Assembly (NCBI GenBank): GCA_000092065.1
Contig: CP000593.1
DNA from: Ostreococcus lucimarinus
Lineage: Eukaryota
Strand: one strand, 5' to 3'
DNA: 64,000 nt
Shown here: piece by piece, positions 1,636-59,368 of the stretch
How the letters are laid out: each line of letters begins with the position of its first letter
How positions within the stretch are numbered: the first letter of the stretch is position 1
Notes under the pieces: generated by a model
What the model was told of the DNA's origin: nothing
Databases searched by the model: none
Seen by the model: the letters and a program-made list of their open reading frames with translations, nothing else
Made by a program: the position numbers and the translations under genes

Positions 1636-4600
1636 ATGAAAAGTTTTCATCGAACACAGAGCGGAGAAGCTGTCCCATCCGTCAGCCTCGCGCGCGTCAC
1701 ATCTCGGACGACGTCGCGGTCGCGTCGAGGCATGACGCGACCTCGCGCGGCGTCGCGAAGCGCGCGACGATCGTACGCGGAAAGCGAGCAAGCGTCGAGC
1801 GAGGACGACGAACACCGCGCCGACGACGCCGAGGTTGACGCCGAGGAGAAGTTTGAATCCGAGGAGGAAGAAGAGCCGCTCAAACGTCGACGACGCGCGA
1901 CGACGACGACGACGACGACGTACGGGACGACGATGGTGCGGCGCGAGAAGCGTCGATCGAGTCGTCAGGAGAACAAGCCTCGGAAAAGATACGTGGACGA
2001 CGACGACGACGATGAGTTTGTCGCCGAGCAAGACGACGACGACGACGACGAGTTCGAGGAGGAGGACGAGGAGGATTTCATCGAGGACGAGAGCGACGAC
2101 GAACCGGTGCGAAGGAGTACGCGCGCAAGAGAGCGTGTGAATAGACTCTCGCCGACATTCAAGCAGAGAAACGATGACGACGAGGAGGAAGAGCTCGAAG
2201 ACGGCGAAGAAGAGACGGACGACGACGACATCGGCGACGTCGCGAACAAAACGTACCCGAAACGCACGCGTGGTCCGCCGCCGGAACGGTTCGCGCCTCA
2301 ACGACCCGAAAGTGGTAAAGATCGCTCGAATTCCGGGCGTCCAGGATTGTTCGAACGTCGCGGTACGACGTGGAAGGATGACAGAGACAAAACGTCGTCG
2401 CGCGAGCGCTCGAGACGACAGACGTCGGGGAGGTGGATCGATGATTCTGAAGATTCGGACGACGGCGAATTTAATCTCGGTGCTGGCGCCATGGATGCGT
2501 TTAAGGCACCGCCCGCGTATCCTCTCGCGGGCGCCGGTCCATCCAGTGCCGCGCCGGGTCCAAACGTCGACGCCGAAATTACACCAGTCACCGTCGACCC
2601 CACTTTGTCCTTCTCCTCGGTCGGTGGACTGGACAAGTACGTCGACGCGCTGAAAGAGATGGTATTCTTACCGCTCTTATACCCAGAAGTCTTCGCACGC
2701 TTTAAAATGAGTCCGCCGCGGGGTGTGCTCTTATACGGCGCGCCGGGCACGGGGAAGACGCTCATCGCGCGAGCGCTCGCCGCGTCTTGCAGTCGCGCAG
2801 GCTCTGAAGTCGCGTTCTTTATGCGCAAGGGAGCTGACGTCTTGTCAAAATGGGTCGGCGAATCCGAGAGGCAGCTGCGTCTTCTGTTCGAAGAGGCACA
2901 AAAGCGGCAGCCGGCAATAATTTTTTTCGACGAACTCGACGGCTTGGCGCCCGTGCGATCGAGCAAGACTGATCAAATTCACAACTCTTTGGTGGCGACC
3001 TTACTCGCGCTCATGGATGGCTTAGATAATCGAGGTCGTGTTGTCGTTCTTGGCGCGACGAATAGAGTGGATTCCATCGACGGTGCGTTACGTCGTCCCG
3101 GGAGATTTGATCGCGAGCTGGCGTTTCCGCTTCCCGGCGTGAAGGCGCGCGGTGAAATTTTACGTATTCACACCAAGGCGTGGGAGCAGCGTCCGTCGGA
3201 AGCGCTCATCGACGACCTTGCGGCGAAGTGCGTTGGGTACTGCGGCGCCGATTTGAAAGCCTTGTGCACCGAAGCCGCGGTTCACGCCCTTCGCAGAAGA
3301 TATCCGCAAATTTACGAATCCGACGAGCGGTTGAGCATCGACCCGAAGCAAGTGATTCCGAGTCGAGCAGATTTCAGAGCAGCGCTCGCGGCAATAGTTC
3401 CCGCGTCGCATCGTGCCGCACGCACGCACGCGAGGCCGCTTACGCCTTTACAAAAGCCGCTTCTTGAGGGCGTACTGGAGGCGTGCTTGGAGAGCATTCG
3501 CAAGACGTTTCCGCCGGCGACGTTCATCACTCTCGATGGCGACGGAGAAGCTGTGGGCGTGAATTCCGGGGCCCGTCAAATCACGGATGCTGTCGCCGAG
3601 GAAGAAGACGAGGATATACTCGCGCAAGCGGCGGTGAGCGATGAGGCCGCTGGTGCGCTGCCGAGCGAATCAGCGGCGACCGCGGCGCTCGAATTTATGA
3701 GACGTCCACCTTGTCAGCGCACGGCGCTTTGCATTCACGGCGCAGAAACTAGCGGTTACAATCAGCTCACATCGGCGCTTTTACACGCGCTAGAGCAGTT
3801 TCCCGTCCACGCGATCGGCATGCCATCACTTCTCGGCGACTCTGGACGCTCGCCCGAGGAAGCTCTCGTGACTGCCATCACGGAGGCTCGCCGCGCGGCG
3901 CCGTCAATTTTGTATCTCCCAGAAATTCGACTTTGGTGGGAGAGTTCTACGCCGACGCTGCGCGCGGCGTTGACGACGCTTCTTCGCGACATCCCAGCGG
4001 ATCTCCCGGTGATGTTGATCACCACGGCGGACGTCGCCACCGTCGATGAACTCGAGGAGAGTCTTCGCGCGTCGTTCGCGTCCGTTCGCTGGAACCCCAT
4101 CGCGATGCCAACGACGTACGACGATGCATCGTTGACGAAATTCTACCGCCCGCTTTGTGATGCGGCTTTCAATATTGCACAGAGACGAGACGTCGCGGCT
4201 TCCCGCGGCGAGCTCATCGACGGCCGAGCACCGGCTTCCGCGCTCAAACGAGAAGTTCTCACTCGAGCCCCTCGCCCGACTGAAGGCAGCGGTCGAGAGG
4301 CCGTCAAACGCGGATCGCAAAAACTTTCTCAAGCCGCCATCGCGGCGGAGAATCACCTGCTCCGTCAGCAGCGCATGTTCTTGCGCGACGTCGTGACGAA
4401 GCTCTTGTACAAAAAGGCGTGGAACGTGCTCGCGGCGCCGATTAACGACGACGAGTTGCCCGGGTATTCGCAACGCGTCACCGATCCCATGGACCTCTCT
4501 ACACTTCTTTGGAAAGTAGATAGTGAGAAGTACACGACGATTGACGCCTTCCTCAAGGATGCCAATCTCATCACGAAGAGCGCTCACGAGTATTGGGGCG

Positions 4601-6105: not shown

Positions 6106-6522
6106 GGCGCCGGTTCGACGCGCGCTGAGGGCGCGAAGCGGTCGGTTCGAGCGAGTTAATCAAACAAAAACTGTCCTCGTCTTCGCCGTGCGCGCGCGAC
6201 GACGATCGCACGCCGTCTACGCCCGCACGCCGCGCGGCAACCTCTGCGAACGCGTCAACGTTCGAACGCGCGAGGTTTTCATCAGTATTGCAAACCACAC
6301 GGACCAATCCGGCGGCGAAGACGACTTCGCGCGAAGACATCGCGCGCGGCGATGAGCGGGCGCGTCGTGCGGCGCTCAGGATGCCGCCGTCGACGACTTT
6401 GACGAGTGTGTTGTGTGTTACGGTAAGATTACACCATCCTCTCCCGGATGACGAACATCGAATCAATCAAAGCTAAATCGAAGGCGAGCTCGCCCAAACC
6501 TATATCGCGGCTACGCAAACGC

Positions 6523-6702
6523 TCAGTTGTTGAAGCGCGCGCGTCCACCAGCGCGTTGGCCTTGCGGGTTCAAAGCGGCGGCTTCCTTCTCCGCGATAGC
6601 TTGCGCCGCAGTCTTCGGCTTGCCGCCCTTCTTGTTTCTCGGCGTCGATTGCTTGCGCTTGAGAATGTCCTGCTTGTTCTCAAAGTATCTACGGCGGCGG
6701 GT
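6523..6702 (-). CDS. Mitochondrial-type ribosomal protein bS21, exon 2 of 2 (TRRRRYFENKQDILKRKQSTPRNKKGGKPKTAAQ…FNN*)
   Basis: An AG acceptor lies at plus 6703-6704. The exon continues the S21 signature RRRxYxEKxxxxRKR in phase 0. The stop TGA is at plus 6523-6525. The intron is 205 bp (6703-6907). Neither exon is reported as a single ORF in the track. Confidence 0.65.
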   Translation of the reverse strand, partial: TRRRRYFENKQDILKRKQSTPRNKKGGKPKTAAQAIAEKEAAALNPQGQRAGGRARFNN

Positions 6703-6907
6703 CTGCGTCGTCGAGTCACATCCATCATTCGTCAGTCATCGATCGTCGATCGTCATTCGCGCATGCCCATCGCGCGCTCGGGCGCGTCGTCCACCGCGGC
6801 GACGGCTCGCTCGCCTCGCGCGCCCCTCGGCGTAACCCTATTCTGGGACCTATCCGTGGACTCGTCCACTCGTCGCGCGCGCGCGTCGTCGTCGCGATCG
6901 CGCGCAC

Positions 6908-6997
6908 CTCTTGGATGTGACCGGAAGACATCACGGCCTTTCTGAATCGTCGAATCGCGCTCTCGGCGTTTTCGTTTTCACCCACAGTCACCTGCAC
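6908..6997 (-). CDS. Mitochondrial-type ribosomal protein bS21, exon 1 of 2 (MQVTVGENENAESAIRRFRKAVMSSGHIQE)
   Basis: Strong similarity to bacterial S21 and MRPS21 N-termini ([21 protein letters not shown]… / …VQEGNVESAYRTLNR…). The exon ends at a GTGCGC donor (plus 6906-6907 = ac). Confidence 0.7.
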
Positions 6998-7485
6998 GGA
7001 ACGCGCGCGTCGCTCGCGTCGTCAGTCGCGGGTCTCGAGGGGTGCCATCGCCCCGCGTCGCGCGCGCGCGCGCCGCGTCCGTCGCGCGCGCGCGCTCGAA
7101 GACGCGCGAGATATTATTTCAATCGCGCACCTCCGCTTGGAACGCGCCCTTGAACGCGAAGATGTGGGAAAATCCACCGAGAATGAACGCCATGGTCGCG
7201 ACGTCGTCGGGTTGTGCCGACGCCGAACCTCGCGCGTCGGCGCGACGGCCGCGCGAGGCGCGTGCGCGTCGATGCGCCATGTATTTATACGACATAAATC
7301 TCGTATATAATTAAATATAAGTGCGATCTAATACTCACACGAAGGCCCTCGTCCCAAACCCTAGACAGTCTAGCCAATCCGCGCGCGTCGTCGTCGCGGC
7401 GTCGTGTCGTCGCATTCGCGTGGATCTGCCTTTTTTCGAGTGTTCGCGCGAAAATATCTCGAGCGGGCGCGCGGGCGCGTTACGA

Positions 7486-7509
7486 CGTCGTGTGACGCGT
7501 CACACGACG
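7486..7509. promoter_or_regulatory. 24-bp perfect palindrome CGTCGTGTGACGCGTCACACGACG (centred on ACGCGT) in the divergent bS21 / WD40 promoter region
   Basis: Read directly; the reverse complement is identical. It is the first of three TGTGACG…CGTCACA inverted-repeat elements in this window. Confidence 0.7.
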
Positions 7510-20602: not shown

Positions 20603-20629
20603 GTTTCGTCCGCGAGCGCGCGACGGCGC

Positions 20630-20785
20630 GATGTGACGACGCGACGATGGTGACTGCGATGAGTGACTTGATGATGACTTCAACGCGCGATTTTACAGTG
20701 GCCGCGAAAGTACGGCGCGACGATGGTGACTGCGATGAGTGACTTGATGATGACTTCAACGCGCGATTTTACAGTGGCCGCGAAA
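20630..20785. repeat. Tandem direct duplication, 2 x 76 bp, containing the stop codon and last codons of the AKR gene
   Basis: Identical 76-mers at 20630-20705 and 20706-20781 (…cgacgatggtgactgcgatgagtgacttgatgatgacttcaacgcgcgattttacagtggccgcgaaagtacgg…). Confidence 0.85.
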
Positions 20786-21865: not shown

Positions 21866-22030
21866 TCGATTGTGACGCTTCGGGACGACGCGTCACATCG
21901 CGACGACGCGTCGCGACGCGCGCGTCGGACGCGACGCGATTCCGAAGCGTCACGATCGCGACGCGTCGCGATCGTCGCGGGACGCATCGTTCGGGCGCGA
22001 TTCCGACGCGTCGCGATTCCGACGCGTCGG
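21866..22030. promoter_or_regulatory. Divergent promoter region with hairpin TGTGACGC-(11 nt)-GCGTCACA (21871-21897) and five ACGCGT (MluI/MCB-like) cores within GACGCGTC repeats
   Basis: Read directly; it lies between the AKR start (minus, 21859) and the helicase start (plus, 22032). Confidence 0.6.
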
Positions 22031-22031
22031 G

Positions 22032-25000
22032 ATGGAATCTTCGGAGGGAATCTTCGCGGGACGACGCGACGGCGACGCGAGCGACGCGCGGGCGTCGGCG
22101 CGCGATGGGACGCGACGAGCGATGATGGATGACCGCGCGCGGAGTCGCGAGGGGGCGCGGGACGACGCGCGTCAACAGCATCATCCGCGACGCGGGCGAC
22201 CGAGCGGGACGGCGGCGACGGCGCGGGGCGGACGCGAATACGGCGGACGAGGGCGCGCGCGCGCGACGCAGGGGTACGGATACGAGCACGGGCACGGGTA
22301 CGGGCACGGGCACGGGTACGGGTACGGGTACGGGTACGGGTACGGGTACGCCGGACACGCGCCGAGCGGCGGGGGCGGCGGACGCGGACGAGGGAAGAAG
22401 ACGGCGAAACCGCCGCCGAAAATCGCGTACGCGACGAAGATTAAGCGGTGCGTGAACACCGGGGACGTGAGCGGGGCGTTCGAGTTTTTCGCGCACGCGA
22501 TGGCGAGGTATAGGTTTGAGACGGCGAATGGGACGTTTAAGCGACACCCGGGCGATCCCGCGACGGTGTGTCCGATGGGGATCGACGAGACGACGTATTA
22601 CAAGCTCGTCGCGGCGTTGGTCAAGGAGACGCACGCCGATCACGCGAGCGAGGTGGCGCGAGCGATGGCGGCGTTCGGGTTGAAGATGTCGGTCAAGAGA
22701 TTTACCGAGGTCATCGCCGCGATTCCGTGCCGGACGAGGGCGAAGGAGGCGTTGGCGTTCGTGGACGCGTGCTGTCGAGGGGCGGATCTCGTCGGCGAAG
22801 AAACCGCGTCGACGTCTTCGAGCACGGGGGGTGTTTTAGAGTTTGGTGATCTCGCCACGGCGGCGTATTACACGAAAAACGTTCGTCTGTTGGTGATGGA
22901 GTTTTGCGAGGAGTCTAATCAAATCATGGAGCGCATCAAGAAGCGGTCGCCGAAATCGCTCGAGCAGGCGGGGACGTGTTCGTTGAACCTCGTGGCGAAA
23001 CCGTCCAAGCTCAAGGGTGGGCGCTTGTGCTTATCCACACCGACGAGCGCGGACGCGCCAAACGTCATCACGCGCATGGCGTGCTTGAAATCGCTCGAGT
23101 CTAACGACGGCAAACGAGGCGTGCAGGTGGGTGATTCCATCCTCGTGCGAAGGTACCAGCCGCCAGTCGAGCAGGAGGAACCCGAATCCGAACCCGAGCC
23201 CGTGAACCAAATCGCGGCAAACTCGTCGTTGAAAGTCACCGCGGCCGCGTTCGTGCCGAGACCCAAAGCTCCGAAGCCGCTCGCGGCGCCGGAGACGCCC
23301 GTGGAAGAGTACGAAGGCGTGATTGAAATCGTCCCGTACACGCTCAACGAGTTGCACATCAAGCTCGATCACGGCGACGTCCAACAACTTTCCGGCGACG
23401 ATTGGCGCATCGATCGATTAGCGAACAGAATCACGTACACGCGTCAAATAGAGTCGCTGTACGAACTTCTCGAGCCGAACGATCCGACGAAGAAGGCCAT
23501 CTGCAACACGAATCCCGTGTTTCGACAAATTCTCACCGCCGGCTTTCAAAGACCGGCGAAAGATTTGGCGGACGAACTCGCGGCGGCGATCGGCTCGCTT
23601 AACGTGCGAGGGGATGATAAAACCGATGGTATCGATCAAAGCGGCGCGCCACCTCTCGCGGCGAAGGAACCGCGATTCAACGTGTGCGAAACCCAACCGT
23701 GGCTCCCCGGGTGCGAGATGGTCGAGCGCGACGTCGTGCCCACGCTGTGCCAAGGGACGATTAATCCCACGGGCGATTTATCGCTCGCTGGACCGTACGA
23801 TCGCGTCGTCGACAGCGTGACAAGAATCCACAGCCTGAACACGTCGCAGCGCGACGCCATGAAAGCGGCGTTGGAGCGACGATTGACGTTGATTCAAGGG
23901 CCGCCGGGAACCGGCAAGACGCACACGTCGGTGGCCATCGTTCGCGGCATGCTCGAAATCGGGCACGGACCCGTATTGTGCACGTCCGACTCGAATACCG
24001 CGGTGGATAACATGGTCGAGGGCCTGGCGAAGGCTGGTGTGAACGTCATTCGTTTAGGGCGACCCGAGGCGGTGCGACCTGATTTGGCGCGGTATCAAAT
24101 CGAAAACGCCATTCCGCCGGGGGCGACGAAGCACGAGGCGTATGAGGCGCAGTTGCGCGCGGTGCGTTACGCACAAGCCGTGTGCGCGACGTGTTCGGGA
24201 TCTGGAAGCGACTTCCTCGATCGAATCAACTTTAGTGCTGTGATGTTGGACGAGGCGAGCCAAGTGACCGAGCCCATGGCCCTCGTTCCGCTTGCGAACG
24301 GTTGTCAACAGCTCGTCCTCGTGGGCGATCACAAACAACTTCCGCCGACGGTGGTTTCGCGCGAAGCCGAGCTCGCGGGCATGACACTCTCGCTGTTTGA
24401 CCGCTTGATTCGGGCCGGGGTGAAGCCGTACTTGTTAGACACGCAGTTCCGCATGCACCCGGCGATCAGTTACTTTCCGTCGCTGTCGTTTTACAAGGGT
24501 CTCGTGAAGAGCGGCACGCCAGCCGCCGAGCGTCCGGCGCCCAAAGGATTCGCGTGGCCCATTCCGAGCGTGCCGATCGCGTTCTGTCCATCACCTCAAG
24601 ACGCCATGGAAACTAACGATAATATGAGCTACTCAAACAAAGTCGAAGCCGAGCGAGTGATGAAGATTCTCACCGATCTTCTCCAAGCGAAGGAGTTGCG
24701 CGAGTGCAACATCGGCATCGTGACGCCGTACGCGTCGCAGGTGCGACTGATTCGATCGATGTTACGCGCGCGAGGCGTGCGTACGGGCGTGGATAGAGAA
24801 ACCGGCGAAGCCGGGGTCGAAGTGTCTTCCGTCGACGGCTATCAAGGTCGAGAAAAGGAGCTCATGATAGTCTCCACCGTGCGCGCGAACAACCTCAACA
24901 CCATCGGTTTCGTCGCGGACGCTCGACGATGCAACGTCACGCTCACGAGGGCGCGAAGAGGCGTCATAGTCGTCGGTCACGCCTCGACGCTTTCACGCGA

Positions 25001-34170: not shown

Positions 34171-36762
34171 ATGGTGGCGATCGGGACGTCGAACAGCCGA
34201 GCGGGGGATAGCGAGGAGGCGCGCGTGCGCAAGCTCGTGCGGGACAGAAAGACCGCGAGCGCGGAGACGCGAAAGGCGAAGTCTCGAGGTCGAGGACGAT
34301 TGACGACGTCGCTGGCGTCGTTCAAGGAGTCCAGCGCGCGGGAAAACGATGGAGAGGGAGATGAGGATGAACAAAGCGGGTACGGGATTCTTTCGATTGA
34401 TAAGTTGATTTCGCTGTCGCCGACCGAGGCGGTGAAGCGGCTGGTGGCTTTCGGCGAGGATTTGAGGGGAAATTTCGTGGGATTGGCGGAACGCGCGGGG
34501 AGCGCGCGAGAGTGGGCGCGACAGGCGTGGCGCGATGGCGAGTTGTATCATCAATCGCTGGTGCAGATAGTGATACGTTTGGAGCATAAGCGGCTGTTGG
34601 ACGAGCGCAGGTTCGCCGCGCTCGATCAAGTTTACGCGCAGACGAGCAAGAATCCAGACGAAGCCGAGCTGAATGCCGCGATTGGCAAGTTTGATTCGAT
34701 CGTGCGGCGCTTCACGAGCGATCGCGAACACATCGACAATTTGTATCGGACAAAAGATGCGGCGGCGGAGGCTGCGAAGCGGGCGTACACGAAAGAGATG
34801 GAAAGCGCGATGAATGCGACGTCGCCGTCCGGCGAGTCGAATACGCCGAGGGATCGCCTCGGAGACGCGTACGGAGACGAGGACGACGATGTGTCCGAGG
34901 ATTTCACGGACGATGCAGAGAAGTCGCAAAACTCCGATGACGTCAGGTACGACGAGTTGGCGGAAGAGTTGAAGAACTCGCCCCTTTTACAAACGGCGAG
35001 CGGCAAGGTGGCGCGGTCCAAACTCACACACGCCGCGTCCGTGGACGATGGCCCTGCGTCGTCGTCGCGACAGCGCGATGATGCGCTCGCCGCAGCCGTC
35101 GAATCGGACGACACGATGACGCAAGTAGGGCGGAACTTGAGCGAAATTGCGAAAACAATGCTGAGCGAAGAAGAACCGTCAAAAGGGGAAGTTTCTAGAC
35201 GTCCAAACCTCGCGCCGATGCTCGGCAAGAGTTTGAGCTTCTACTCCTCAACGTCGGTCAACGATGACAACGACGCGCGTAACGTGCTCAGTTCGTTTGG
35301 ACGTACGGTGAACGAACTGTCAGATAAGGAGTTGCGTTCGACCATCGTTCGACTGGTGCGAAGTTCGATTTGGAACGCGTTTGAAAACGTCACCTCTTCG
35401 CCCTTTGCGTACTGGCTCGCCGTGTTTTACATCACGCTCATCTTTGCATCGTCGCTTTCGTTTTGCATTGAGACGTTGCCGGAATACAAAAATGGCAAGT
35501 CCAAGAACGTGTTCTACGGTATCGAGTTATTCTCAGTCATCATGTTTACGATTGAGTACGTCTTGCGGTCGCTGTGTTGTCCAAACTATCGAAAGTTTGT
35601 CAGGCAACCTCTGAACGTGGTTGATTTGTGCGCCATTCTTCCGTTTTATCTCGAAGCTATTTTTCCGCTTTCGGTATCCAGTCTTCAGATTATTCGTACG
35701 ATTCGTTTGGTGAGAGTGCTGCGAATCGTCCGGCTTGGGGTGAAATTCGGACGCTTATCCATCATCGGATCGTCGATCAGGGAATGCATCGACATGCTGT
35801 TGGTTTCGCTCGCCATCGGTTCAGTGTGCACGGTGATTTTTTCGACGCTCATCTACTATGCTGAACACGGCGATTACGTGGCGAGCTTGGACATTTACGC
35901 GCGGAGAACGGACGTTTATTGTGAAGGACTGAGCCAGAGCGTCACATCTATCTATCAAAGCGACGGTACGCTTGTGAGTGGATGCACGCACGTGGAGAGC
36001 CCGTACAAGAGCATCCCCGCGAGCTTCTGGTGGTGCATGGTGACATTGATGACAGTCGGCTATGGCGACCACGTGCCGGCGACAGGTTGGGGTAAACTTG
36101 TGGCGTGTCTCACAATGGTGACGTCGGTATTATTATTAGCCTTGCCGATTTCAGTCATCGGCACAGAGTTCACTCGTCAGTGGCTCAATTATAAAGTCGA
36201 CTCCGAGTTCGAAAGGGATAAAAAAACCGTCACGCCGAGGTGTTACAGATTGTTCAAAGCGTTAAAGGAGCAAACCCGCAACGCACAAGACGCGCAACAG
36301 GACTTGCGTCAAAGAGCTTTAGATTTGGACGATCGAGTGCAGACTATAAAGGCGCTCGTGTCTCGTAGAAACGCTGAGACCGCCTTTCTTCATAGAAAAA
36401 TTGCCGGTCGTTCGACGTTTTCGACGTCGGGCATGGAAAAAGTGCAAGGGGCGCTCGACATGGATGACTTGGATAGCGAGATGCATCAAATGTTCATGAG
36501 CCACAGAGATTACAGAGCGACCGCGCGCGAAGTAAAAACTATTTGGAGTGGGCATAAGCTCCTAAAGTTTACCGAGTTCCTGATCTCCGCTGAGCACGTT
36601 TTGGACGGGTTGTGCAATGACGATTACGACATGGTGACCCAGGAGTTGGACTCGTTATTCTTTGACGTGTGGCGCGCGCGTGCAAAGTTGGCGGCGACGT
36701 TCGGAAATGAACGACGAGGGACTGCCGCTCCGGCGAGTGTCGCGACTGAGGGCGGCGCGTGA
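34171..36762 (+). CDS. Voltage-gated K+ channel (Shaker-like 6-TM Kv) with long N-terminal cytoplasmic region
   Basis: S4 voltage sensor with Arg at every third position (IIRTIRLVRVLRIVRLGVKFGRL) and the pore/selectivity filter MTVGYGD. ATG is at 34171. Confidence 0.8.
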   Translation: MVAIGTSNSRAGDSEEARVRKLVRDRKTASAETRKAKSRGRGRLTTSLASFKESSARENDGEGDEDEQSGYGILSIDKLISLSPTEAVKRLVAFGEDLRGNFVGLAERAGSAREWARQAWRDGELYHQSLVQIVIRLEHKRLLDERRFAALDQVYAQTSKNPDEAELNAAIGKFDSIVRRFTSDREHIDNLYRTKDAAAEAAKRAYTKEMESAMNATSPSGESNTPRDRLGDAYGDEDDDVSEDFTDDAEKSQNSDDVRYDELAEELKNSPLLQTASGKVARSKLTHAASVDDGPASSSRQRDDALAAAVESDDTMTQVGRNLSEIAKTMLSEEEPSKGEVSRRPNLAPMLGKSLSFYSSTSVNDDNDARNVLSSFGRTVNELSDKELRSTIVRLVRSSIWNAFENVTSSPFAYWLAVFYITLIFASSLSFCIETLPEYKNGKSKNVFYGIELFSVIMFTIEYVLRSLCCPNYRKFVRQPLNVVDLCAILPFYLEAIFPLSVSSLQIIRTIRLVRVLRIVRLGVKFGRLSIIGSSIRECIDMLLVSLAIGSVCTVIFSTLIYYAEHGDYVASLDIYARRTDVYCEGLSQSVTSIYQSDGTLVSGCTHVESPYKSIPASFWWCMVTLMTVGYGDHVPATGWGKLVACLTMVTSVLLLALPISVIGTEFTRQWLNYKVDSEFERDKKTVTPRCYRLFKALKEQTRNAQDAQQDLRQRALDLDDRVQTIKALVSRRNAETAFLHRKIAGRSTFSTSGMEKVQGALDMDDLDSEMHQMFMSHRDYRATAREVKTIWSGHKLLKFTEFLISAEHVLDGLCNDDYDMVTQELDSLFFDVWRARAKLAATFGNERRGTAAPASVATEGGA

Positions 36763-41616: not shown

Positions 41617-41675
41617 TCGCCTCGCGCTTGCAGCAACAAAGCCGTAAGCCGTCACAACTCGCCTCGCCTCGAAAC

Positions 41676-42413
41676 ATGACCACCCGGCAGTTGACGATCC
41701 AAATCGTCTCCGACGTCGTGTGACCTTGGTGTTACGTCGGCGTGAAGAACCTCGACCGCGCGCGCGCCGCGCTTCGTCCCGACGTCGCGTCCTCCCGGGC
41801 CGTTTGGCGACCATTTCAGCTCGTGAGTTCTCATGATTGGCGGCGAATGGGCGCCGACGTCGCGCGCGCGGGCGTGAACAAGCGCTCGTGGTACAACGAA
41901 CGATTCGGCGCCGATACGGTGGCGACGTTCGAGCCCAGGCTCGCGAGCGCGTTCGCGAAGGCGGGGATCGAGGGCGCGTACACGCTCGACGGCAACACCG
42001 GCGACACGAGACCTGCGCACCGCGTCGCGGCTTACGCCGAGGAAACGCACGGCCCGGCGGCGCAGGACGCCTTCATGCGCGCCATGTTCCACAGATACTT
42101 CATCGAAGCGCTCGCGCCGTGCGACGAAGCCGTGATGAGAGACGCGGCGAGCGCCGCGGGTTTGGACGAAGCGGCGGTTTCCAAAGTGCTCGCCGACGGC
42201 GAGGCGTCGCCGTTCGAGACGGTCGTGGAGGAGCAAATGTCGGCGACGCGCGCGCGCGTTCGCGGCGTGCCGCACTTCATCATCACGTGCGACGGCGACG
42301 GTGCGTCGCGAAAGATTGAGATCGGCGGCGCGCAACCGCCCGAGGCGTTTTTGGACGCGTTCGCCGAGCTTTTGGATTTGGACGCCGACGACGTCGCAGC
42401 GACGAAGTCCTAA
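41676..42413 (+). CDS. DsbA/FrnE-like thioredoxin-fold oxidoreductase with in-frame TGA (41721-41723) at the first Cys of the CxxC motif: candidate selenoprotein (UPWC)
   Basis: ATG at 41676. The translation reads MTTRQLTIQIVSDVV-[TGA]-PWCYVGVKNLDRARAAL…, which is the canonical DsbA/FrnE N-terminal motif SDxxCPWCYxGxxxL with TGA replacing the first Cys. The frame stays open to TAA at 42411-42413 and encodes a full DsbA-like domain (…RARVRGVPHFIITCDGDG…). TGA is a normal stop in neighbouring genes. Confidence 0.55.
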
Positions 42414-58683: not shown

Positions 58684-59289
58684 TCATCGCGCCGCGGATT
58701 TCTCCGTCGAAGATTCCCTCTTCTTCTCCTTCTTCTCCTTCTTCTCCTTCTTCTCCTTCTTCGCCTTCTTTTCTTTCGCCGCGCTCGGCGACGCGTCGTT
58801 CTCGTCGTCGTCGCCGCGCGCCTCGAAACCGTCGTCGCTCGCCTCTAATCTTCGCGTCAGCGTCAGTTCCCGCGCGATCCCGACGCTCGACGCCGTCAAC
58901 AGCGACGCATTATTTTCATCGCCATCGCTCGCGTCCGCGACGTCGTACGCGCGCGCGATCGTTCTCCCGAAATCTCCGAGTCTGTATTCGCTCGTCGTCG
59001 CCGCGTCGTCCCGCCGTCCCCCGCGCGTCGTCGTCGTCGTCATCACCAGCCCGTCCACGTCCGCCAGCCTGACGTCTCCCGGCACGCGCACGAGCACCAA
59101 ACTCGACTCGATTCTTTCGTCGTCGTCGTCTTCCGCGTCGTCGTCGCGCGTCGTCACGACGCGATGTCGCCCCGGGACGTCCGCGGCGGCGGCGCGAATT
59201 CCTTCGTACGTCGCGTCGTACATCGCGCGCGCGCGCGCGTCCACGAGCGCGCCGATCGTCGTCGTCGTCCCTCGCGTCGTCGTCGTCAT
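58684..59289 (-). CDS. Hypothetical acidic protein with C-terminal (KEKK)n tail
   Basis: An ORF with mixed composition and a terminal AAKEKKAKKEKKEKKEKKEKKRESS tail. No family is recognised. Confidence 0.3.
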   Translation of the reverse strand: MTTTTRGTTTTIGALVDARARAMYDATYEGIRAAAADVPGRHRVVTTRDDDAEDDDDERIESSLVLVRVPGDVRLADVDGLVMTTTTTRGGRRDDAATTSEYRLGDFGRTIARAYDVADASDGDENNASLLTASSVGIARELTLTRRLEASDDGFEARGDDDENDASPSAAKEKKAKKEKKEKKEKKEKKRESSTEKSAAR

Positions 59290-59327
59290 CGCGCGTCGTC
59301 GCGTCGTCGCGTCGTCGTCCGCGTCGT

Positions 59328-59360
59328 CGTGTGACGATTCGACGCCGCATTCGTCACACG
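59328..59360. promoter_or_regulatory. Inverted repeat CGTGTGACGA-(13 nt)-TCGTCACACG, 9 bp upstream of the EMC1 start codon
   Basis: Read directly; 10-bp perfect arms. It is the third member of the TGTGACG…CGTCACA element family. Confidence 0.7.
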
Positions 59361-59368
59361 GCGACGCG

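Follow-up and report, generated by a model that had tools for sequence, protein, structure and literature searches.

An oriented CGTCACA word at gene 5' ends of Ostreococcus lucimarinus and its possible palindromisation by template switching

In a 64,000-nt stretch of nuclear DNA from Ostreococcus lucimarinus (referred to below as the window), the heptamer CGTCACA is enriched, in one orientation, immediately upstream of gene starts, and at three head-to-head gene pairs it belongs to an inverted repeat that is polymorphic between samples. Enrichment, orientation and polymorphism are directly observed, as is the templated character of the variants. The best explanation of these data, which is proposed here with moderate confidence, is that a promoter-proximal oriented DNA word has been repeatedly palindromised by template switching. 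CGTCACA would in this case act as a promoter-proximal or transcription-start-proximal protein-binding word, located in the ATG-free leader directly upstream of a start and serving the gene to which it points. Of the two outward-facing copies present at each of the three head-to-head pairs, the distal one would have been written by short hairpin-templated replication errors, through which the gene-proximal arm was copied in inverted form. Template switching would also homogenise the arms and flip the spacer that separates them, and the palindromic form itself would have little or no separate function.

The intergenic regions of Mamiellales picoalgae are among the shortest of any free-living eukaryote and, to our knowledge, the promoter architecture of these organisms is largely uncharted. 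No description of a CGTCACA word was found in the literature on the motif, on Ostreococcus promoter motifs, on bidirectional promoters or on transcription start sites. The window is nuclear DNA of a compact, intron-poor green picoalga, with a GC content of 62%, a CpG observed/expected ratio of 1.72 and long uninterrupted ORFs encoding topoisomerase II, EMC1, an AAA-bromodomain protein, WD40 proteins and others. The nearest proteins come from marine metagenomes; relatives at 59-73% identity make up several Ostreococcus-like groups, and Bathycoccus stands at 48%. Gene models were built from ORFs, with three manual corrections, and starts were inferred from ORFs and conservation. All statistics refer to ~75 kb of one species, in which the 12 copies of CGTCACA are not independent of each other. 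Contigs for comparison were gathered through one metagenome scan with a WD40 alignment, through exact-protein look-ups and from cluster members; three short ones (L229, L230 and L243) may or may not be RNA-derived and give no firm start-site evidence. The pattern TGTGACG-N(0-20)-CGTCACA also has at least 120 matches in viral contigs, unrelated phage contigs being among those listed.

CGTCACA as an oriented word at gene 5' ends

The preliminary description of this DNA was centred on a palindrome (site 1, Table 1) and two related inverted repeats (sites 2 and 3), and it raised the possibility of an enrichment near gene starts. This enrichment is real: CGTCACA is not uniformly distributed in the window and has a strong tie to 5' ends. 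Eight of the 12 oriented copies are found in the ATG-free leader of a gene, six of them 10-40 nt before the ATG. Distances from the word to the start are 10 nt for EMC1, 11 nt for an aldo/keto reductase, 19 nt for a DsbA-like gene, 29 nt for a gene of 621 aa, 30 nt for the AAA-bromodomain gene (counted to its second in-frame ATG), 40 nt for a DUF4604 gene, 134 nt for a helicase and 220 nt for the WD40 gene. As the chance of such a location is 0.055 per copy, the association has P=3.5e-8, or P=1.4e-3 when inverted repeats are counted as single loci (5/9). This test replaced an earlier one asking whether the first downstream ATG opens a long ORF, which has a background of 22% because of in-frame internal ATGs. 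In sense-oriented upstream DNA, CGTCACA is the best word that is not made of CG repeats, with 8/12 copies falling in 4.4% of the sequence (P=5.7e-9), and 8 copies are observed within 5' intergenic DNA versus 0.99 expected.

The word occurs as single copies at three tandem genes (20638, 41650 and 1695) and as pairs at three head-to-head gene pairs, the others falling in coding sequence, and it is often extended as CGTCACA(C/T)CG.... The single oriented copies upstream of three further starts, as well as the marks of template switching, had escaped the preliminary description. At the AAA-bromodomain gene, for which the start assignment is inferred, ATG 1732 may be the true start. Sense orientation combined with a narrow position before the gene start is what characterises core-promoter words. 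CGTCACA thereby resembles initiator-like words and the elements of bidirectional promoters, a likeness that extends to the very short leaders, to the TCA/CA step that it contains and to the outward-facing copies at head-to-head genes. In contrast to initiator-like words, it is present at ~8 of ~40 genes and is poorly conserved between congeneric species, and its two copies are only 7-29 bp apart, which sets it apart from known bidirectional promoters.

Table 1. Inverted repeats and single copies of CGTCACA in the window, with position, strand and remarks
Feature	Position	Strand	Remark
Site 1, 24-bp perfect palindrome CGTCGTGTGACG / CGTCACACGACG	7486..7509	.	minority allele
Site 1, polymorphic 8-nt block	7488..7495	.	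TCGTGTGA in window, CGCGCGGG in most contigs
Site 1, right arm GCGTCACACGACG, aimed at WD40 (ATG 7725)	7497..7509	+	invariant in same-species contigs
Site 2, quasi-palindrome TGTGACGCtTCG-gga-CGAcGCGTCACA	21871..21897	.	27 bp, longer than first noted
Site 3, 49-bp quasi-palindrome, 18-bp arms CGCGTCGTCGTGTGACGA / TCGTCACACGGCGACGCG	59320..59368	.	longer than first noted
Single oriented CGTCACA	20632..20638	-	29 nt before first ATG (20602) of 621-aa gene, tandem neighbour
Single oriented CGTCACA	41650..41656	+	19 nt before ATG 41676 of DsbA-like gene
Single oriented CGTCACA	1695..1701	+	30 nt before second in-frame ATG (1732) of AAA-bromodomain gene

Two further candidates were set aside. A family member with one mismatch (35920-35946) belongs to the part of a channel gene that encodes its ion-transport domain, and a 13-nt match to the site-1 arm (41712-41724) is coding sequence across a TGA codon. 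The gene that holds this codon, the DsbA-like thioredoxin-fold gene at 41676-42413, is split by ORF tools and has a Pfam match only from profile position 76; it reads ...SDVV-TGA-PWCYVG..., the TGA (41721-41723) replacing the first Cys of a CxxC motif, and on this pattern it is likely to encode a selenoprotein.

The recurrence of the motif at three 5' ends had also been held to exceed chance, and the counts agree. TGTGACG and CGTCACA are each present six times in the window, three of each being paired within 15 nt, and every other 7-mer with at least three inverted-pair loci occurs at least 44 times. A rare 7-mer with at least three such loci was obtained in 0/150 shuffles with 300-bp blocks and in 2/150 with 1-kb blocks (0-1.3%). 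The outward arrangement TGTGACG...CGTCACA is the only one found, inward and direct arrangements of the two half-sites being absent from the window. Palindromes in general are abundant in this DNA: those of at least 12 bp number 171, versus 87+-13 in dinucleotide shuffles (300-bp blocks), i.e., about twice as many, and there are two of 24 bp versus 0.27 expected (shuffle maximum 4). With palindromes so common here, little can be concluded from the 24-bp length by itself, and the strong evidence lies in the recurrence of one rare word.

It could thus be asked whether extremely CpG-rich, low-complexity intergenic DNA would produce the whole pattern by chance, since palindromes are abundant, a second perfect one of 24 bp exists at 21952-21975, shuffles give 0.27 of them per window, and the flanks CGTCG/CGACG are among the commonest words. 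This is nonetheless highly improbable in view of the family-wise shuffle tests (0/150 and 2/150), of the under-representation of TGTG/CACA (TG and CA observed/expected ~0.75) and of the leader association (P=3.5e-8). In 5' intergenic DNA, 5.7% of 7-mers have a perfect inverted partner within 20 nt, or 1.6% of those with at least three A/T (background 2-9%), and 3/5 intergenic CGTCACA loci have such a partner. A model of coincidence between a common word and pervasive inverted repeats was rejected on the basis of this low background pairing rate.

As a separate observation, the longest inverted repeats of the window concentrate in head-to-head and tandem 5' gaps, the median arm being 13 bp in divergent and 6 bp in convergent ones.

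Alleles of the three inverted repeats

Site 1 had been presented as a perfect 24-bp palindrome located ~215 bp upstream of the WD40 ATG, between divergent genes, and each of these points is correct: positions 7486-7509 read CGTCGTGTGACGCGTCACACGACG, which is identical to its own reverse complement, the palindrome ends 216 nt before ATG 7725, and the 443-bp gap separates a minus-strand gene (start 7193) from the WD40 gene. Its designation as founding member of a family of elements is not supported, however, as the perfect palindrome is a segregating minority allele (the window and 3/12 other contigs) and the right arm alone is fixed. In 9/12 same-species contigs, which come from other, independent samples, CGCGCGGG replaces TCGTGTGA; these nine contigs read acgacgCGCGCGGGcgcgtcacacgacg, and acgacgTCGTGTGAcgcgtcacacgacg is restricted to the window, L142 and L241. 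The two alleles are of equal length and differ by a single 8-nt block in which 7/8 positions are mismatched at once; since these positions changed together, the change was templated and multi-nucleotide. In addition, TCGTGTGA is the exact reverse complement of positions 7500-7507, a signature of template switching. The alternative allele repeats cgcgcgggcgcgt, located 21 nt upstream, so that its block completes a direct repeat of 13 nt. Since this allele, too, is a copy of neighbouring sequence, either of the two may be the derived one at site 1. The left arm aims at a gene whose start is ~300 nt off, with ATGs in between, which speaks against the proposed account. Under that account, the 24-bp perfect palindrome at 7486-7509 would be a young allele and not a conserved palindromic operator.

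Several other features of this gap and of its neighbourhood deserve mention in their own right. The minus-strand gene to the left of site 1 begins with a conserved MAFILGG... at 7193, and its second exon resembles ribosomal protein S21; the gene spans 6500-7193 with an apparent intron, a first exon MAFILGGFSHIFAFKGAFQAE being followed by bacterial-type ribosomal protein S21 exons (QVTVGENENAESAIRRFRK...), and a 165-aa antisense ORF in the same region (6448-6945) is probably spurious. A telo-box-like AAACCCTA is present upstream of this gene at 7356-7363, in a segment that is partly deleted in L222, and AACCCTAA also follows a CGTCACA at 21997 in L221. The evening element AAAATATCT is found at 7451-7459, 27 nt to the left of the palindrome, and every Ostreococcus-like group examined has AAATATCT, in one orientation or the other, upstream of WD40, in a region that is otherwise not alignable; this shared element suggests that the WD40/minus-strand gene pair may be under clock control.

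Two sets of contigs covering the WD40 gene are also of interest. L243 (a contig of 1734 nt from SRR847308) runs from 1 nt before the WD40 ATG to 86 nt past the stop and is transcript-like; an RNA origin would hint at a short WD40 leader, with the site-1 palindrome in the promoter and not in the 5' UTR. L010 and L222 are parts of one 29.7-kb long-read contig (ERZ10646675 contig_13210) that is near-identical to the window around WD40. The reductase of this contig, ~12 kb from WD40, has only ~77% protein identity, and the EMC1 of a sister contig has 92%. The pattern of L010/L222 and L221 points to a mosaic divergence between lineages or to a chimeric consensus.

At site 2, the related repeat reported at 21871-21897 is indeed TGTGACG-N13-CGTCACA, 11 nt from the minus-strand ATG (21859) of the aldo/keto reductase gene and 134 nt from the helicase ATG at 22032, and it extends into 12-bp arms with one mismatch and a 3-nt spacer. 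Seven contigs agree with the window at this site. The haplotype of L229 carries TGTGACGCTTCG-gga-CGAAGCGTCACA, a perfected palindrome with 12-bp arms and an inverted spacer; it differs from the common haplotype by an arm change, G>T, and a spacer change, tcc>gga, that is, by the combination of spacer inversion and arm homogenisation that template switching is known to produce. In the divergent lineage L010, site 2 resembles the common imperfect form, with a disrupted repeat in which a TGTGA/TCACA core persists, which supports the perfect form as the derived one. In L005, from another species, CGTCAC is kept 17 nt before the reductase ATG; this is not clearly so in another species.

The second 24-bp perfect palindrome, ACGATCGCGACGCGTCGCGATCGT at 21952-21975, shares its divergent gap with site 2 and lies among GACGCGTCGGAATCG-type repeats; it is imperfect in 3/4 of the other same-species contigs compared and deleted in the fourth. 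Both 24-bp perfect palindromes of the window are therefore imperfect or absent in contigs from most other samples. Past the reductase stop, a 78-bp tandem duplication (20603-20755) is absent from other same-species contigs; the E2F-like CTTTCGCGG is found between its copies, and between similar repeats in species L005 too.

The third repeat, first located at 59328-59360 in front of EMC1, likewise stands up to closer reading, with TGTGACG-N15-CGTCACA at 59330-59358, 10 nt before ATG 59369. In its full extent (Table 1), it has one T.G mismatch and a 13-nt spacer, ends 1 nt before the EMC1 ATG and takes up most of the 79-bp gap between the minus-strand DUF4604 gene (ATG 59289) and EMC1. Variation among 20 contigs consists of a G>A change in L232 and L234, which perfects the 18-bp arms, and of one loop change; stem-breaking variants were not found in these 20 contigs. 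In the divergent lineage L221, whose EMC1 is 92% identical, the right arm is kept (CGTCAGAcggcgacgcg) with one change, CGTCAGA, and the left-arm GTCGTGTGACGA is replaced by GACGCGTCGCGA, leaving this lineage without an inverted repeat at site 3. The differences between the left arm and L221 are clustered and make the arm complementary to the shared right arm; L221 has G at the mismatch position. At both sites 2 and 3, the gene-proximal arm appears to be the older one.

A discontinuity was also seen close to site 3. To the right of position 59277, L236 and L240 (SRR32281596 and SRR32281661) share 99.9% identity with the window, and they carry different genes (acetyltransferase, SNAPC1, JmjC) left of the junction. 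This junction (59277/59278), 43 nt away from the 49-bp quasi-palindrome, interrupts the DUF4604 gene after four codons, within an ACG/GTC repeat, and reflects either a real rearrangement reusing the same divergent promoter or an assembly chimera. A correspondence with the rearrangements of the O. mediterraneus structural-variation paper was considered and dropped, as the runs carrying it are not those of that paper.

Beyond the species of the window, the word is found at different places. In the divergent lineage represented by L221 and L010, 3/5 copies are again just upstream of genes, though of different ones (e.g., CGTCACAtcATG, at a pentapeptide gene), and the single copy at 20632-20638, present in every same-species contig read, is absent from L010; the use of the word at other genes in this lineage indicates a probable rapid turnover. 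Apart from the evening element, the region upstream of WD40 could not be aligned in six other species groups, only one of which has CGTCACA at ~-210 of the orthologous WD40 ATG. The word is not conserved at the 621-aa gene in related species. Among the loci available from other species, which are orthologues of a few window genes only, start-proximal enrichment was not seen (1/13 copies), and no orthologous inverted repeat was found at the loci compared. Conservation of CGTCACA across species thus appears weak, a further point against the proposed account.

Origin and role of the paired form

Arm homogenisation, spacer inversion and perfect stems formed in one step have been described as results of template switches that involve short inverted repeats (PMC8604942, PMC8794818). 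The variants described above resemble such mutations in several respects: changes are clustered and multi-nucleotide, the new sequence being the reverse complement of the neighbouring arm, a 3-nt spacer is inverted together with an arm correction, and single changes remove the sole mismatch. They differ in one respect, namely that three events concern the same 7-mer, all at gene 5' ends, which a purely neutral process does not predict. The excess of pairing at CGTCACA is not fully explained by the main account and calls either for selection or for a local mutational bias: pairing at 3/5 loci versus 2-9% implies that the paired form is favoured, as would suit the DNA module or RNA hairpin considered below, or else that a bound or active site promotes local template switching.

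Two known palindromic sites had been evoked for the motif, and neither is supported. ACGCGT centres the palindromic allele of site 1, as in the MluI cell-cycle box bound by fungal MBF, but it occurs 80 times versus 78.6 expected from dinucleotides, i.e., at compositional expectation, it is not the centre of sites 2 and 3, and the majority allele of site 1, GGCGCGTCAC, is without it. Similarly, the half-site contains TGACG/CGTCA, as do bZIP sites (CRE TGACGTCA; plant as-1/TGA). However, a bZIP site has a fixed geometry with an overlapping ACGT core, whereas the half-sites are here 0, 13 and 15 nt apart and TGACGCGTCA, with its CGCG centre, is 2 bp wider than CRE; furthermore, the conserved part reaches TGTG/CACA, and single copies occur.

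The pairing excess leads to a second possibility, in which the inverted repeat itself would be a functional bidirectional-promoter module serving both head-to-head genes, either as the target of a dimeric or paired factor or through cruciform extrusion, the variants still arising from template switching. All three inverted repeats are indeed in head-to-head pairs, no such pair in the window has a single copy, pairing is far above the 2-9% background and strictly outward, and the distance between half-site centres, 20 bp at site 2 and 22 bp at site 3, is about two helical turns. Site 3, where 20 contigs are without stem-breaking variants and one variant improves pairing, would also be in line with such a module. 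Such a role is doubtful, though, when set against the missing left arm in most site-1 haplotypes, the variable spacing (0, 13 or 15 nt), the divergent lineage, in which the repeat is missing from site 3 and disrupted at site 2, and the lack of an orthologous inverted repeat in the other species compared. Tandem genes, moreover, carry single copies at the same position.

Sites 2 and 3 are close enough to their starts to be considered at the RNA level too, as stable stem-loops that would be transcribed in very short 5' leaders and would tune translation or mRNA stability. Predicted folds reach -36.8 kcal/mol for the EMC1 leader (z -5.2) and -18 to -20 kcal/mol for that of the reductase (z ~-2.1), making these the two most structured of 36 leaders (mean z -0.18). 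The mismatch of site 3 would be a G.U wobble solely on the EMC1 sense strand, the variants leave pairing intact or strengthen it, and L229, whether RNA-derived or not, starts 46 nt before the reductase ATG and holds the entire site-2 hairpin. The lack of stem-breaking variants at site 3 would also be consistent with a selected hairpin. DNA folds of sites 1-3 are predicted to behave like the RNA folds. Several observations make a role in RNA unlikely. Transcription of EMC1 would have to start within 30 nt of the ATG of the divergent gene, and in a housekeeping gene a stem of -37 kcal/mol that stops 1 nt short of the AUG should impede scanning, as reportedly follows from Kozak's work on the scanning model. 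The variants are templated blocks or single corrections and not independent compensatory pairs, in a set of few sequences, and no Rfam match at gathering threshold is found in the whole window. The polymorphic site 1, at a distance of 216 nt from the ATG, is no more stably folded than shuffled sequence (-18.4 kcal/mol, z -0.9), and, as a weaker point, the transcript-like L243 starts 1 nt ahead of the WD40 ATG. With the stable start-abutting stems that they could form, sites 2 and 3 are reminiscent of 5' UTR stem-loops such as iron-responsive elements, but they are without a conserved loop or bulge and without an Rfam match. Start-abutting hairpins are not a genome-wide habit either, the 36 gene leaders being no more structured than shuffles.

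Finally, the repeats could be seen as remnants of small mobile elements, i.e., terminal inverted repeats or excision footprints with a preference for promoters, given that sites 1 and 3 share an 11-nt arm, GTCGTGTGACG, and that all copies are in promoter regions. This is hardly credible: the alleles of site 1 have equal lengths, which denotes a block substitution and not an insertion, and alignments with the divergent lineage show substitutions where an inserted segment would be expected. Target-site duplications are not found, the spacers are without the similarity that is typical of miniature inverted-repeat elements, and the additional 13-nt match at 41712-41724 is coding sequence.

Significance for picoalgal promoters

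A variant that combines several of these ideas would have lineage-specific hairpin elements, acting as cruciforms or leader stem-loops, born by template switching and then kept by selection as a shared switch for head-to-head genes. It is an improbable scenario on the present data; if true, regulatory structures would be born in one mutational step and would still be segregating in nature, in a very compact eukaryotic genome.

More generally, under the preferred reading of a promoter-proximal word palindromised by template switching, an oriented word positioned 10-40 nt before starts would be of practical use in annotating and engineering promoters. The palindromic alleles that segregate here are natural cases in which regulatory DNA has acquired perfect inverted repeats by template switching. 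They call for caution, since a perfect palindrome, however striking, may be the most extreme allele produced by rapid mutation and not a conserved element. CGTCACA is, in sum, a promoter word of ordinary to moderate interest whose mutational history is instructive, rather than a conserved palindromic regulator.
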